Shown here: piece by piece, positions 6,707 to 12,260 of the stretch
How positions within the stretch are numbered: position 1 is the stretch's first letter
Layout: the number at the start of each line of letters is the position of its first letter
From: a virus
Lineage: Duplodnaviria > Caudoviricetes
IMG/VR virus record: IMGVR_UViG_3300032236_001024
Span: 1 to 64,000 of that record
DNA: 64,000 bases
Strand: one strand, 5' to 3'
Notes under the pieces: generated by a model
Databases searched by the model: none
Seen by the model: the letters and a program-made list of their open reading frames with translations, nothing else
Told to the model about the DNA's origin: nothing
Translations under genes and position numbers: made by a program

Positions 6707-8821
6707 TTAGAACTTACCAACAATTTCTTCGAACTCAACACCAGTGCGTACAGCAACGAAGTTAAGCTGGATGAAATTGATTGAACGTGCGGGCTTAATG
6801 TAAATGTCACCTCTGAATTCGTTTCTGTCAATAACTTCTGGAGTATTGTTTGTTGTGTCACAAACAACTCTGAAATCATAGATTCCACGACGACCTTGAA
6901 TGTCACGAAGATATGGTTCTACAAGATTGCGGAATGCTGCTCTTGTAAAATCATCGTTAAATTCAAATAGAGTTGACTTAGCAGCTGTTGCAATTGCTTT
7001 CTCAAGTACGATGAACAATCTACGTACATTGATACGATCAAATGCAGATGGTCTTGAAAGCAATGTCTTATCACCATAAAGAAGCGTTCCCTGTCCTTGT
7101 AGTGTTACTACAGGATTGATTCCGTTACGATAAAGAACATCACGTTCAGTTTTATTTGGATTATAAGAAAGTTTTACAACATTCTTGATAACACCTCTGT
7201 TCAATCCAGCTGGTGAGAACCATGGATCACGAACATTGTCAGTACGAACACAGAGACCAGCAATATCACCATTGAGTGGAACCCAACGATAAACATCATT
7301 GTACTTGTCATACTGATACTTATAGCCAGAATCTAGTACTGCATAAGATGTTGAAGTCAATGCATTTCTGAATGCAAGAACATTGTTCATTTCTTGACCG
7401 GGGGCATTTACTGTGTTATTCAATTCAGGTGAAATAAATGCTACACAATCTTTTCTATATTCACAGATATTATCTATGATATAGTTTGCAAGTGTTTCGC
7501 CAATATTTCCTCTTGACTTACCACCAAGAATCAATGAAACATCTACATCTTCAGATGACTTATACTTGTCATATGCAGTCATTAACTTTGATGTAGAAAT
7601 AGCTGTTTCACTATCACCATCTGCACCATTATTAAATGATAATGATAAATTAGTTGTAATACCTGGTGCAAGAGAAGTATTGTCAGAATTTTTTTCAGTT
7701 GCTTCGAGTGGTCTAGTTGACCATACATAACGTGATCTATTGTTTAGAACATCTCTATAGTAGATCGAACCACCTTGTTCACTCTTGGCATCCTTTGCAA
7801 CAGAAACATTGCTCCAAACTTCAAGAATTTCACCAGGAATTCCTGTAATCTTACCATCTTCGTCTGAAACAACGACATGAATTTCATCTCTTACTGAATT
7901 ATTTGCATTTCTATCATCGACATACTTAGTACTAGTAGGAGCAGTATCTACAGCATTGTGGTATTCCCAATACTTAGTACCAAATGAAGTTGTTGTTCCA
8001 GTAGAAACAAGATTTCCGCTAATAGTAAGGTCATCTTTTTGTCTAAATGTTTCTACAAATGTAAGTGGGAAATATGAATATCCCCATGTATGTGTAGCAT
8101 TTGAAGTTGGAACTGTTACAACACTACCAATACTCTGAATAGTCATATATTGTGTACCAATAGTGCTATTTCCTACAAGAAGCTTATCACCAACAATAAA
8201 TTTTCCGTTTAAATCAGCAGCAGCAACACTAGAAAATGTGTTGGCAAGATGTTGATAAAATACATTTGCTGTAGATGAACCTACAGGCAAACTAAACGAA
8301 TAATAAGTATTTGATGATGAAACAGAAGTATTTGATCCATTATATGCTACAATAGTGCTTTGATAAGCATTTGATGATGGACAAATTGAAATTTTCAATG
8401 AATTTCCATGATGACCAGCATACTTAGCAACAAAGTAAACATTTGCATACGTTGCTGAAGCTTCAAAAGATGATTTTTGTGTCTGATAATCGCTTAAATT
8501 TTTAACTACAATATTGCCAGGAGTTGAAACTCCACTATTTGCATAAGCATTATAAGTAGTTGCAGATGCTGCTCTTGTTACATATAGCTGATTGCCATAT
8601 GCCAAAAAGTTTGCAGCTGTGAAAAATGATTCGTAATTGTTGGCAGTTGGCTTACCAAAAACTGATACTAACTCATCCTCAGAAGAGACAAGAACTCTCT
8701 CTTCGATTGGACCCCATTTGAAAACTCCAGCTGTTCCACCAAAAGTAGAAGAGACTGCAGGAACAATGGTTGTTAGATCAATTTCAGATACGTTAACGCC
8801 TGGGCTAACTTGAAATGGCAT
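6707..8821 (-). CDS. gp18: Tail sheath protein
   Basis: N-terminus MPFQVSPGVNVSEIDLT; motifs PWFSPAGLNRG, FDRINVRRLF and IYIKPARSINFIQLNFVA. Confidence 0.97.
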   Translation of the reverse strand: MPFQVSPGVNVSEIDLTTIVPAVSSTFGGTAGVFKWGPIEERVLVSSEDELVSVFGKPTANNYESFFTAANFLAYGNQLYVTRAASATTYNAYANSGVSTPGNIVVKNLSDYQTQKSSFEASATYANVYFVAKYAGHHGNSLKISICPSSNAYQSTIVAYNGSNTSVSSSNTYYSFSLPVGSSTANVFYQHLANTFSSVAAADLNGKFIVGDKLLVGNSTIGTQYMTIQSIGSVVTVPTSNATHTWGYSYFPLTFVETFRQKDDLTISGNLVSTGTTTSFGTKYWEYHNAVDTAPTSTKYVDDRNANNSVRDEIHVVVSDEDGKITGIPGEILEVWSNVSVAKDAKSEQGGSIYYRDVLNNRSRYVWSTRPLEATEKNSDNTSLAPGITTNLSLSFNNGADGDSETAISTSKLMTAYDKYKSSEDVDVSLILGGKSRGNIGETLANYIIDNICEYRKDCVAFISPELNNTVNAPGQEMNNVLAFRNALTSTSYAVLDSGYKYQYDKYNDVYRWVPLNGDIAGLCVRTDNVRDPWFSPAGLNRGVIKNVVKLSYNPNKTERDVLYRNGINPVVTLQGQGTLLYGDKTLLSRPSAFDRINVRRLFIVLEKAIATAAKSTLFEFNDDFTRAAFRNLVEPYLRDIQGRRGIYDFRVVCDTTNNTPEVIDRNEFRGDIYIKPARSINFIQLNFVAVRTGVEFEEIVGKF

Positions 8822-8867
8822 TGTTTTCTCCTTTTTATAATAAAAATCATATACTAATTCGTATGAT

Positions 8868-8875
8868 TATTTATA
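8868..8875 (-). promoter_or_regulatory. T4-type late promoter TATAAATA
   Basis: Exact consensus upstream of gp18. Confidence 0.85.
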
Positions 8876-8881
8876 AAAACA

Positions 8882-10015
8882 TCAATTTAGCAAAAATCTT
8901 TCGAATTCGCTTGAACTCATAACCTTATCCTCAAAATCATCCTCTCTGCCATCATCTATAATGCCAAATGGAGTGAAATCTTCCTCAACTTCTTCCTCAA
9001 TTCTTCTGCGGATATCAGTATTTGATACATCTTTAAAATAATTTTGACTTACCATCCAAGCAAACAACACCAAACACATTACCAAATCATCATGATGACC
9101 TTCTTCCGCATTATAGGTATTTTTGTCTACCGCATAGGTCGAAAGTTCATTTATTATATCATAATCATTTAAAATTATTTTATCCGATTCAATAAGGGTT
9201 TTTAAGTTAGCGCATCCTATTCTTTTGGTGATTTGGGTTGTTTTTATTCCTAATCTATTTTGATTGCCATCTGTACCTATAGCAGTGCCTTTTCTTCCAC
9301 TCATTCTGGTCATTACTATGTTTTCATATTCCAAATCTTGGTGTAGAATGTTGACAACCTGTGAACCTATATTTATTTCCACTAAAATAGAGGCATCATT
9401 GTAGTATCTGCCAATATTTGCTATCAAGGTAGGGAAAACTAACTGTGACATATTTGCATCTTTAAATGTAGCAACTACTTCATATGGTACTGTAGAACAA
9501 TCAGTAACTACAAGAGCAGACGAATCCATACCCAACCCCTCACTCACATCTACTGTTATTGCATATACATGGTCTTTAATTGGATGCTTATAGATTTTTA
9601 CTTCATGTGGATTGTCGATTGGACGCATATAAACCAATCTGGAAAGTACAGTTGGGTGAATAAGAGTATTAGAAGACCCTAAGAATTCGCAATTGTGTGA
9701 TAAAATATCGTTAGCATAAAACTGCTCATTTTCTACCCCAACAATATCAAAATATTCAAATTCTCCATCTTTATAATCTAAAAAAAATATTTTTGATTTT
9801 TCATTTTTACATATGATAATGTCGTCGTTCTTAAGATCAATAGATTTTTTCCACCCATCTACAGTCATAATTCTATGGGTAAGAGAACATTTTAATTGAC
9901 TACCATTTTCTAAATAAATTTCAATTTGTCCATTTTTTTTAATTTTTTGTACACCTTTAAAAGGTAAATAGCCTTCAGATGTTTCTATTAATATATTATT
10001 ATTTTTAAAGAACAT
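8882..10015 (-). CDS. gp17: Large terminase C-terminal half: IntC (108 aa) fused to the nuclease domain
   Basis: The first 108 aa end in FDIVGVENEQFYANDILSHN followed by CEFLGS (intein blocks F/G and the Cys+1). The remainder has the RNase H-like terminase motifs ITVDVSEGLGMDSS and AEEGHHDDLVM. Confidence 0.93.
   Translation of the reverse strand: MFFKNNNILIETSEGYLPFKGVQKIKKNGQIEIYLENGSQLKCSLTHRIMTVDGWKKSIDLKNDDIIICKNEKSKIFFLDYKDGEFEYFDIVGVENEQFYANDILSHNCEFLGSSNTLIHPTVLSRLVYMRPIDNPHEVKIYKHPIKDHVYAITVDVSEGLGMDSSALVVTDCSTVPYEVVATFKDANMSQLVFPTLIANIGRYYNDASILVEINIGSQVVNILHQDLEYENIVMTRMSGRKGTAIGTDGNQNRLGIKTTQITKRIGCANLKTLIESDKIILNDYDIINELSTYAVDKNTYNAEEGHHDDLVMCLVLFAWMVSQNYFKDVSNTDIRRRIEEEVEEDFTPFGIIDDGREDDFEDKVMSSSEFERFLLN
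9692..10015 (-). mobile_element. Split intein, C-fragment (IntC, 108 aa)
   Basis: Block B (CSLTH), block F and a terminal His-Asn followed by Cys. Confidence 0.9.
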
Positions 10016-10565
10016 TTCGTTTTCCTGTAATTATATTATATAATTGTGTTTCAGTTACGTTATATTCCTTGTGAAATTCTTTAGAAAAAGCTCTCTCATA
10101 AGTAATTTTTCTTCCATTTTTTGATATATCGCCTACCCCTTTTAAAGTAATTTTATTATTATATTTTTCTAAAATTAGACAACATTCATGATCAGTAATT
10201 TTAACTTTGCCAAATCTTTTTCCTTTTCTATTATTTTTAATTTCTTCTGAAAAAGAATACTTTTTTCCTTTATTCCAAGGAATTGTTCCTTTTGGAACCC
10301 CGCCAATATTTGGTCTTTTCTTTCCCTTTTGTAAATTTGAAGAATAATCTGGACCAAATCCAATTCTTTTAGCAATTAATGCAGCTGCAAACCAATCTTC
10401 TTGCTCTAAATGAATATCAAAATGTTCTCTTATTGTAACTAATTGTAAATTTTCTATGTTATTATTTTTATGATTACCATCTATATGATGTATTTCATAA
10501 GAAAACCCATTTTCATCAGTTGGTATTTTGCCGTGTGTATTTTCCCAAATTTTTCTATAATGCAT
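10005..10565 (-). CDS. Free-standing HNH homing endonuclease
   Basis: YEIHHIDGNHKNNNIENLQLVTIREHFDIH HNH motif and a PWNKGK NUMOD-like DNA-binding tail. It is more AT-rich than the flanking genes and lies between the intein halves. Confidence 0.9.
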   Translation of the reverse strand: MHYRKIWENTHGKIPTDENGFSYEIHHIDGNHKNNNIENLQLVTIREHFDIHLEQEDWFAAALIAKRIGFGPDYSSNLQKGKKRPNIGGVPKGTIPWNKGKKYSFSEEIKNNRKGKRFGKVKITDHECCLILEKYNNKITLKGVGDISKNGRKITYERAFSKEFHKEYNVTETQLYNIITGKRNVL

Positions 10566-10590
10566 ATAATTTAATCCTACAAAATTGCAT

Positions 10591-11475
10591 TCATAATATA
10601 TTTATAATTTCTTTGATTGCAACTTTTTTGGAAATGCCATCTATTGAAATATTAATTTCTGTATCACCATCTAAACATTCAAACTCTTGACGGAACTGGT
10701 CAACAGAAGTATTACGGATAGTCTCTACTTTCCATGCTTCATCTCGACCGGGAACATCTGACCAATGAACGTCAACACGAGCATAAGAATTTTCATTATT
10801 AACAGAGTCCATCCAAATTTTATAGAACAAGTTCATTCCATTTGGAGTAGAAGTTATCAGAAGCTTTGATGTGTTACCAGACGAAATAGTGGGGAATACT
10901 GAGGCAAAAAACGTATCTTGGATATTTCTTGGAACGAATGCAAATTCGTCAAGATAAATCAAGTTATAGGATTGACCACGGATAGCAGATGATGAGGTAG
11001 CAGATGCAAGTATTTTAGAGCCATTTTCCAATTCAATATTTCCCTTATTCCACTCAACAACACCTTGCTGCATCCACTTTGGCAACCATTCATAAGCGAG
11101 TTGGACTCTCGACAAAATTTCTTTTGCCTGAACTTGTTTATTGGCAAGAACAGCAATGTTATAATTTTCATTAAATAATATTTTATGTAAAAGATAACCA
11201 ACGACGCCTGTAGTTTTTCCAACCTGACGAGGCATTTTACATATGGTAAAACGATTATCGTCAAATACCTTAAACATCTTTTTCTGATATTCATAAGGTT
11301 TAAATGATACAAGACCTTTATCAACACTTACAATTTTAACATAATTTTCACAAAAATAATTAACATCTTTAGCGCATTTCACATATTCTAGAATTTGATC
11401 TGCCGTAAATTCTAATGTTACATCTTTACGCTTTAGATTTTTATTACCAAGATATATTTCGTTCGTATTACTCAT
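10591..11475 (-). CDS. gp17: Large terminase N-terminal half: ATPase domain fused to IntN (28 aa)
   Basis: Walker A (MPRQVGKTT), Walker B (LIYLDEFAF) and TSTPNG; ends in RQEFE-CLDGDTEI...IL*. Confidence 0.95.
   Translation of the reverse strand: MSNTNEIYLGNKNLKRKDVTLEFTADQILEYVKCAKDVNYFCENYVKIVSVDKGLVSFKPYEYQKKMFKVFDDNRFTICKMPRQVGKTTGVVGYLLHKILFNENYNIAVLANKQVQAKEILSRVQLAYEWLPKWMQQGVVEWNKGNIELENGSKILASATSSSAIRGQSYNLIYLDEFAFVPRNIQDTFFASVFPTISSGNTSKLLITSTPNGMNLFYKIWMDSVNNENSYARVDVHWSDVPGRDEAWKVETIRNTSVDQFRQEFECLDGDTEINISIDGISKKVAIKEIINIL
10594..10677 (-). mobile_element. Split intein, N-fragment (IntN, 28 aa)
   Basis: CLDGDTEI is intein block A starting at Cys1; a stop follows after 28 aa. Confidence 0.9.
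10599..10606 (-). promoter_or_regulatory. Late promoter TATAAATA inside the last IntN codons
   Basis: ATT ATA AAT ATA TTA TGA contains the exact consensus, 34 bp upstream of the HNH ATG. Confidence 0.6.
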
Positions 11476-11482
11476 AATTTAA

Positions 11483-11866
11483 TCAATCTCTATCAGTAAC
11501 GTGATACGCCCACATATGAGTTTCACCTTTTTTCAAAGCATCTCTATATCTATGATGACCATCAACAATTTTCCCATTTTCAATTACTATAGGTGGTCTT
11601 GTTTCTGAAGACATTTTACTATATTTTGCTTGTTTTTTATTACTAGGAATATTATGGTCAGCATCACCAGATTTTATATCACTTAATGGTGTTTTCTTTA
11701 ATTTTGCTTCAGCACCACGAAAATAATCAACCATGAGACCATGATCAACATCATCAGAAGATGTTCTTTCTATATGATCTGCAATATCATGTTCATCCTT
11801 CAGATGATGTTCATATCCTTTAGGAGGTTCATTACTTTCAAATATAAAATTTTTAAATGTCTTCAT
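11483..11866 (-). CDS. ParB/Sulfiredoxin-like domain protein with a capsid-targeting-like N-terminus
   Basis: RPPIVIENGKIVDGHHRYRDA matches the ParB/Srx DGxHR motif; the N-terminus is MKTFKNFIFE. Confidence 0.7.
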   Translation of the reverse strand: MKTFKNFIFESNEPPKGYEHHLKDEHDIADHIERTSSDDVDHGLMVDYFRGAEAKLKKTPLSDIKSGDADHNIPSNKKQAKYSKMSSETRPPIVIENGKIVDGHHRYRDALKKGETHMWAYHVTDRD

Positions 11867-12260
11867 TTGCCTTATCTTTTATCATTTTTAATAGTTCAGT
11901 GGATGATCCAACAAACAAATTATTATTCACTGTCTTATTGCCTTCATTGTTATTATCAGGCTTTGTCAATTCTTTGTTCTTCTTAGCCAAATCCATCAGG
12001 TCTTTGTTAGCATCAGCAAGTGTTTTGATAAGATTAGTAACAACCTCAAATGCTCTTGGCGACTCAGATTGTCTGGCAATATCCACAATATCTTCTAGGG
12101 CTGATGTGCCTTTTTCAATAATGTCGTACATATTTTGACGGGCATATTCATAGTCGTTCTTTTCTGTTTTTGCTGGCAAGAAAACAGGATTTGGTGCAGG
12201 AGGAATTGGAGGAATTCCAAGAGAATTTGATATTATATCTTTATTTGGCATTTGAATCAC
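11853..12260 (-). CDS. gp16: Small terminase subunit (true start probably 12251, MPNKD)
   Basis: DYEYARQNMYDIIEKG...ARQSESPRAFEV...NNNLFVGSSTELLKM. Confidence 0.9.
   Translation of the reverse strand: MIQMPNKDIISNSLGIPPIPPAPNPVFLPAKTEKNDYEYARQNMYDIIEKGTSALEDIVDIARQSESPRAFEVVTNLIKTLADANKDLMDLAKKNKELTKPDNNNEGNKTVNNNLFVGSSTELLKMIKDKANEDI

Follow-up and report, generated by a model that had tools for sequence, protein, structure and literature searches.

The atypically split intein AceL-TerL was reportedly described by Thiel et al. in 2014, with Cat (PDB 6DSL) said to be a consensus derivative, and GOS-TerL, the fractured terminase locus from Lake Gatun (below), was reportedly treated by Bachmann and Mootz in 2015. 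Here, we analyze a large terminase gene (terL) carrying an intein of this type in a 64,000-nucleotide (nt) stretch of phage DNA (IMG/VR record IMGVR_UViG_3300032236_001024, positions 1 to 64,000; Duplodnaviria, Caudoviricetes), hereafter the window. We consider it highly probable that this locus, the only terL of its phage, is a fractured gene whose two chains are joined by protein trans-splicing. AceL-TerL (N-terminal fragment, IntN, and C-terminal fragment, IntC, of 25/104 amino acids [aa]; Cys1/Cys+1), GOS-TerL (37/115 aa; Ser1/Cys+1), and Cat (30/104 aa) are all active trans-splicers, and related TerL inteins cross-react (PMC11766414). Details of the native AceL and GOS loci were taken from secondary sources.

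Fractured genes were defined by Dassa et al. in 2009, together with a stepwise model in which a mini-intein is invaded by a free-standing endonuclease that is then either fused in frame or lost (PMC2677866). Their set held GIY-YIG and Vsr-like nucleases only, and fracturing by HNH nucleases was predicted; it also held a gp17-like terminase from Lake Gatun, "fractured at an unusual point," whose 122-residue IntC lacks no motif but N1 (PMC2677866). A free-standing HNH gene between split-intein halves has since been described in PolB of the Pseudomonas jumbo phage MIJ3 (PMC6892783).

The window's locus shares with AceL-TerL and Cat the T4-type terL host, the S2 split after helix α1, and the Cys1/Cys+1 pair, with fragments of 28/108 aa against 25/104 aa in AceL and 30/104 aa in Cat. 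Its insertion site is the same as that of Cat, as shown indirectly by a Cat-like contig, L067, with its intein at VEYG/C...SHN/CEFLG (slashes mark splice junctions). It differs in being just ~30% identical to CatC and in its middle gene, which is of the HNH_3 family in the window and GIY-YIG in L067; moreover, splicing is demonstrated for AceL and Cat, whereas the window's intein is known from sequence alone. GOS-TerL is set apart by Ser1 and by fragments of 37/115-122 aa, compared with Cys1 and 28/108 aa. MIJ3, like the window, has an HNH homing-endonuclease gene between split-intein halves of an essential phage gene, but its host is DNA polymerase B and its N-half carries blocks A, N2, B, and N4 together, which is the canonical split. 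In the T4-like phage Aeh1, the essential gene nrdA is likewise cut in two by a free-standing HNH gene, mobE, with the pieces co-transcribed (PMC2677866); unlike in the window, there is no intein, and the halves assemble non-covalently.

Vibrio phages 1.244.A, 1.255.O, and K469-type (MG592609 and others) carry an intein with an early break at the window's terL site (KQEME/C...FHN/CSFRGS) and share the 11-nt overlap of the upstream open reading frame (ORF) with the IntC ORF. Unlike in the window, a single 653-aa protein of these phages, named "coil containing protein" in the records, joins IntN in frame to a GIY-YIG nuclease (PF01541, E 2.1e-6). In the record of Vibrio phage 1.244.A (MG592609.1; L002), this name stands for the ORF of TerL-N, IntN, and GIY-YIG (628-2589), and the next ORF, IntC plus TerL-C, is annotated as "terminase-like family protein," without mention of an intein.

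Judged by its sequence, the locus is a divergent new member of the published AceL-TerL/GOS-TerL/Cat group of atypically split inteins rather than a new arrangement. What is added here is evidence of recent mobility, a series of states at one site, and a module shared by HNH and GIY-YIG nucleases.

The terL locus and its intein halves

The ORF list gave three ORFs in three different reading frames on the minus strand at 8882-11475. ORF1 (294 aa; 11475..10591) matched Terminase_6N (Pfam, E 3.5e-24) and consists of the terL N-extein (266 aa; 10678..11475), a T4-type terminase ATPase domain ending ...FRQEFE, and the 28-aa IntN (10594..10677), with the stop codon at 10591-10593; its C-terminus reads RQEFE/CLDGDTEINISIDGISKKVAIKEIINIL. 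ORF2 (186 aa; 10565..10005) is the free-standing nuclease gene, with an N-terminal HNH nuclease and a C-terminal module of ~100 aa, and matched HNH_3 (PF13392, E 9.2e-13) in Pfam and phrog_12324, "intron-like DNA endonuclease" (E 7.5e-21), in PHROGs. ORF3 (377 aa; 10015..8882) opens with the 108-aa IntC (MFFKNNN...NDILSHN; 9692..10015), which holds blocks N2, B (S-x-x-H), N4, F (Asp), and G (His-Asn), and continues into the terL C-extein (269 aa plus stop; 8882..9691), an RNase-H-like nuclease domain with Cys+1 as its first residue (CEFLGSSNTLIHP...). It matched Terminase_6C (E 4.3e-11) and, weakly, Intein_splicing (E 2.3e-4) in Pfam. The HNH stop overlaps the IntC ATG by 11 nt, each of the three ORFs has its own start codon and an AGGA-type ribosome-binding site, and a terminator scan found no terminator-like site between them. 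The two terL pieces stand in their original order and orientation, each with a split-intein half, and enclose a free-standing endonuclease gene, which is the layout of a fractured gene. Between the splice junctions, the cassette measures 986 nt, a length not divisible by 3, and so read-through cannot yield a full-length TerL.

The residues of class-1 splicing are complete: Cys1 (CLDGDT...), S44-L-T-H47, D90, H107, N108, and Cys+1 (SHN/CEFLGS). Cys1 and Cys+1 were conserved in all relatives examined, and the catalytic residues were invariant in an alignment of relatives 56-98% identical (A1) and at least 90% conserved in an alignment of 49 family members (A2). IntN matched block A of the Pab PolII intein. 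For IntC, all PDB matches were inteins, the best being CatC (6dsl_B; full length, E 4.8e-8), followed by gp41-1 and DnaB inteins; the identity of only ~30% to CatC marks the window's intein as a divergent branch of the atypically split TerL inteins.

The fold was tested on P0267, a contiguous mini-intein allelic to the window's at the same terL site (...SQEFE/CVSGNT...ILSHN/CEFLGS) and ~30% identical to the window's IntC in A2. Its AlphaFold model (predicted local distance difference test [pLDDT] score, 95.2) had inteins as top structural matches, namely VidaL, NpuDnaB, gp41-1, RadA, and Cat (33% identity), at template modeling (TM) scores of 0.7-0.84, and predicts the Hedgehog/intein (HINT) horseshoe fold at this site. 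Since MAFFT scattered the 28-residue IntN in A2, IntN was placed by N-terminal homology to contiguous alleles. On the P0267 model, it comprises strands b1-b2 and helix α1 and ends with the helix (H26-33), and IntC aligns from residue 37, in the loop after helix α1. This is the S2 position reported for AceL-TerL and GOS-TerL (PMC13014065), and with its short IntN, long IntC, and break after helix α1, the intein is of the atypically split TerL type.

The insertion site was located from intein-less relatives. ORF1, whose N-extein is 60-64% identical to Pelagibacter, Methylophilales, and cyanophage TerL, matched ~2,700 phage TerLs, and these matches end at residue 267, a Cys; ORF3 matches to intein-less TerLs begin at or near residue 109. 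P-SSM2 gp17, which has no intein, runs uninterrupted through KIEFE/CEFLGS (...KIEFECEFLGSVNTLINP...). We also classified the 80 closest terL loci in IMG/VR. The site was uninterrupted (RQEFE/CEFLGS) in 72 of them, including two (L028 and L029) with a TerL-N 89% identical to the window's yet a continuous RQEFE/CEFLGSTNTLIHP. The IntN-HNH-IntC cassette was found in L025-L027, of the same phage type as L007-L009 (below), and in L052; the rest comprised the GIY-YIG cassette of L067, a mosaic (L048), and 2 contigs that end before the site. With P-SSM2 gp17 and the 72 loci as reference, excision would restore the native, uninterrupted host sequence.

A sequence-only reading of the window had proposed much of this layout. 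The IntN end, the IntC start, and the 186-aa HNH gene between them proved to be ORFs at the coordinates it gave. The restored gp17 of 535 aa agrees with exteins of 266 and 269 aa and with QEFE/CEFLGS in intein-less relatives, and the call of intein halves is borne out by the full set of class-1 catalytic residues. Its assignment to the short-IntN AceL-TerL type fits the CatC match and the S2 split position, and its placing of the break at the ATPase/nuclease boundary holds, as the equivalent position in T4 gp17 (about T353/A354) lies 4-7 residues before the boundary between the ATPase (2o0h) and nuclease (3c6a) domains.

Three candidates were rejected as sharers of the intein. DSL-LC03, with a long ORF1 match, has a continuous TerL; the 880-aa terminase of Synechococcus phage B23 has its intein at the Walker A site; and the P-SSM2 match from ORF3 residue 82 is an alignment extension, as gp17 is without intein.

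The window is part of a complete viral genome of 202,141 bp with terminal repeats. This genome has one terL-N, one terL-C, and no other terL, which makes the case that rejoining is essential; the HNH gene is single-copy in it, and no further inteins were detected in it. An identical three-ORF layout was found in three IMG/VR contigs (L007-L009; IntC 97% identical) and likewise in L010 and in ENA contigs. Logan assembly contigs of four runs were aligned to the locus. In the probable source run, the whole stretch was covered with zero differences. Two contigs of another sample (X2) bridge the junctions: one leads from terL-C across IntC into the HNH gene, the other from the HNH start across IntN into terL-N. 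Assemblies of a different study (X4) cover the terL-C/IntC junction, the HNH/IntN/terL-N junction, and part of HNH on separate contigs, and X6, from a third study, has terL-C, the complete cassette, and terL-N on one contig. Assembly error is excluded, because IMG/VR and ENA contigs show the layout and Logan contigs cross the junctions. All runs containing the locus were freshwater or lake metagenomes, and a near-identity DNA search of deposited phages gave no match; the phage is freshwater, T4-like, and uncultured. Joints in these alignments are flanked by short stretches and stem from metagenome contigs that have diverged; none of them matches a precise 986-nt deletion.

States of the terL site and movement of the cassette

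A profile search with IntC returned 2,019 representatives at E <= 1e-3, of which 379 reached E <= 1e-10. The best 150 profile matches included 58 IntC-TerL-C proteins and 40 one-ORF TerLs with an intein, with others in different hosts. Besides the empty site, five states occur at the terL site: contiguous mini-inteins (P0168, P0267, P0201, and P0236); split with a free-standing HNH gene (the window, L008, L010, L019-L024, and L052); split with a free-standing GIY-YIG gene (L067); split with IntN and GIY-YIG as one in-frame fusion (Vibrio phage 1.244.A and relatives); and split without a nuclease gene (L013-L015, on at least 7 contigs). The L013 locus still has the final ~25 codons of HNH (VFAKQYHVQYNVTEAQLFNIITGKRYVL, up to the stop), out of frame and directly behind IntN, and with them the ribosome-binding site and overlapping start codon that IntC uses; the remnant shows that the nuclease gene was deleted and the split intein retained. 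The IntC of L067 matched CatC at E 4.5e-46, and since L067 lies at the terL site, the window's intein is an allele of the published AceL/Cat family.

The HNH protein had 216 homologous clusters at E < 1e-5. Four of these (49-68% identity) were sampled, and in all four the gene is flanked by terL-N on one side and IntC-terL-C on the other, within T4-like clusters of separate metagenomes. Residues 81-179 of the window's HNH protein matched residues 79-180 of the L067 GIY-YIG protein (37% identity, E 4e-17), and the Vibrio GIY-YIG fusion has this C-terminal module twice (E 3e-8 and 4e-4). The different nuclease heads at the terL site therefore share one C-terminal module, which presumably binds DNA.

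This compact natural series at one site supports the gene-breaking model of Dassa et al. and includes a clean case of an endonuclease lost with the split kept (L013-L015). A broader joint interpretation, which we hold only tentatively and would place somewhat short of an even chance, is that the terL site preserves every stage of the proposed fractured-gene life cycle, that the HNH and GIY-YIG genes are one lineage with swapped nuclease heads and a retained C-terminal DNA-binding module, and that the last HNH codons were co-opted as the translation start of IntC-TerL-C. Such co-option would explain why these codons survive after deletion of the remaining gene.

Selection and identity were compared between the window and L008, using nonsynonymous (dN) and synonymous (dS) substitution rates. 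The terL exteins had dS of 1.1-1.3 and a DNA identity of 83.3%. Within the cassette, IntC had dN 0.011, dS 0.496, and DNA identity 92.6%; its dN/dS of 0.02 is strong purifying selection. The HNH gene had dN 0.023, dS 0.213, and dN/dS 0.11, with an identity of 94.5% that includes the 25-nt spacer and the IntN stop codon, and IntN had dS 0.06, dN/dS ~1, and DNA identity 94.0%. The whole cassette was 93.8% identical to that of L008, versus 83.3% for the exteins (Fisher p 4.4e-16), with a maximum of 99-100% across the 5' half of HNH. On the C side, the IntC/extein boundary is precisely where identity falls, from 92% to 73%; on the N side, the high-identity tract reaches ~150 nt into the N-extein. 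Because the cassettes are more alike than the exteins, their common ancestor is much more recent than that of the host genes, as after homing. L052, filled with a 995-nt cassette, and L050 and L051, which are empty, have exteins 92-100% identical, and the HNH gene is sporadic among close alleles, with 72 empty sites versus a handful filled. By these comparisons, the cassette is younger than its host gene, laterally transferred in recent time, and mobile still. The HNH gene would accordingly count as an intact, predicted homing endonuclease under selection, and the homing role that the sequence-only reading had given it is upheld by the HNH_3 match, the difference in identity between cassette and exteins, and the comparison of L052 with L050/L051. 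Its putative target is most likely terL alleles without the HNH gene, which would be cut and have the cassette copied in by repair.

Probable protein trans-splicing and its alternatives

Trans-splicing of the two TerL chains is, from what the sequence holds, very likely. We propose that a mini-intein lay a few residues before the ATPase/nuclease hinge of TerL and that a free-standing HNH gene would have broken it in the loop after its first helix. The three ORFs would probably be co-transcribed late in infection, with TerL-N-IntN (294 aa) and IntC-TerL-C (377 aa) made as two polypeptides. Docking of the 28-aa IntN on the 108-aa IntC would complete the HINT fold, and canonical class-1 splicing would proceed from the Cys1 thioester through transfer to Cys+1 to Asn108 cyclization, giving a TerL of 535 aa in which the native junction, ...QEFE-CEFLGS..., is restored. 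The HNH protein would have no role in splicing and would act as the mobility engine, via homing. The packaging motor of a complete, uncultured freshwater T4-like phage would then need protein trans-splicing, and the element responsible would still be moving between phages. For protein engineering, the locus offers another Cys1/Cys+1 pair with a peptide-sized 28-aa IntN, ~30% identical to Cat and a candidate for orthogonality screening; many such inteins are now available, and so the value of any one as a tool is modest.

Several observations weigh against this scheme. The runs found with the locus include no RNA run. Block B has Ser in place of the usual Thr, as CatC does too. IntN has dN close to dS against L008, although its 28 codons hold just 5 differences. 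For the window's IntC alone, the AlphaFold model (7 sequences) was poor (pLDDT 46.5), and the evidence for the fold therefore rests on the contiguous allele P0267. The target given above for the HNH enzyme is putative.

An alternative would be intein halves that no longer splice and only keep the two TerL halves together as a non-covalent two-chain terminase, as with Aeh1 NrdA after the mobE split, where a working, unspliced division of an essential phage gene is documented (PMC2677866). However, the residues needed for the chemistry only (Cys1, block-B His, block-F Asp, His-Asn, and Cys+1) are kept at 90% or more down to ~30% identity, and the nearest characterized relatives, AceL-TerL, GOS-TerL, and Cat, splice efficiently (PMC11766414), which makes this outcome improbable. 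The name of phrog_12324, and the HNH endonuclease genes often contained in phage introns, would fit removal at the RNA level by a group I or II intron with an HNH ORF, the intein-like flanks being coincidental. Rfam, intron models included, gave no match in 8500-12000 even at E <= 1; the flanks are in-frame terL extensions with intein motifs, full-length homology to CatC, and a dN/dS of 0.02 in IntC; and contiguous in-frame alleles of the intein exist (P0168 and P0267). We give an intron almost no credence.

The sequence is metagenome derived, and a related mosaic, L048, has a duplicated extein segment and is possibly an assembly chimera; a mis-assembled locus, or a dead terL in a defective genome, is thus a further reading. 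But the layout recurs in three IMG/VR contigs, in ENA contigs, and in junction-spanning Logan contigs of two other studies, each ORF is equipped with its start codon and a ribosome-binding site of AGGA type, the genome has terminal repeats and is complete, and purifying selection acts on IntC (dN/dS 0.02) and HNH (0.11). An artifact or a dead gene is very hard to reconcile with these data, and trans-splicing of a fractured terL is the reading we retain.

Other features of the locus and of related terL genes

Related terL genes showed further inteins and irregularities. The HNH-split contig L023 encodes a terL-N of 654 aa (505-2469) with a contiguous intein of ~360 aa at the Walker B site (...GGSYN/CVDGNS...NNILVHQ/CIFLDEFAFV), ending in Gln instead of Asn; with the HNH-split intein at QEFE/C, this one gene has two inteins. 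Five sequences (P0237, P0203, P0248, P0182, and P0152) are atypically split proteins that begin with IntC and whose extein starts at the terL Walker B region (...SSNC/DEFAFV), a second terL site with the short-IntN split type. In B23 (L003, 1384-4026), the large contiguous intein of the 880-aa terminase sits at the Walker A P-loop (PRQCGK/ALDL...THN/TTTT), and its residue 1 is Ala, neither Cys nor Ser.

In L067 (2998-3891), the IntN ORF ends ...KQLYDE and then CEFIGL before the stop; this tail copies the start of the C-extein (CEFIGS) and may be a footprint of the nuclease gene insertion. The mosaic L048 (1882-4145) has a continuous QEFD/CEFLGS...KEP, then an HNH gene without its catalytic N-terminus, then IntC, and then a repeat of CEFLGS...KEP, with frameshifts; it represents either a chimera, assembled from filled and empty alleles that co-exist, or a locus in decay. 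L018 and L019 are one HNH-split terL locus from two samples, in which terL-N is 92-aa and 154-aa ORFs in L018 and an intact 290 aa in L019; the broken form is either a frameshift variant or a sequencing error.

A T4 late-promoter-like octamer, TATAAATA, lies at 10599..10606 (-), within the last IntN codons and 34 nt upstream of the HNH start. It is kept in L008 and L010, and the HNH-less L013 has TATAGATA instead. A second copy at 8868-8875 (-) lies 47 nt upstream of the tail-sheath gene start. Both octamers are plausible T4-type late promoters but are kept as candidates only, because the window shows no enrichment for the octamer (9 copies versus 11.5 expected); a scan for sigma-70-type promoters gave matches at chance level only. 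Upstream of the locus, a ParB/Srx-like gene (11483-11866, -) sits between gp16 and terL in the window. In the otherwise colinear L008, the alignment is fully gapped over this gene, and gp16 abuts terL, which marks the stretch as an indel between close phages.

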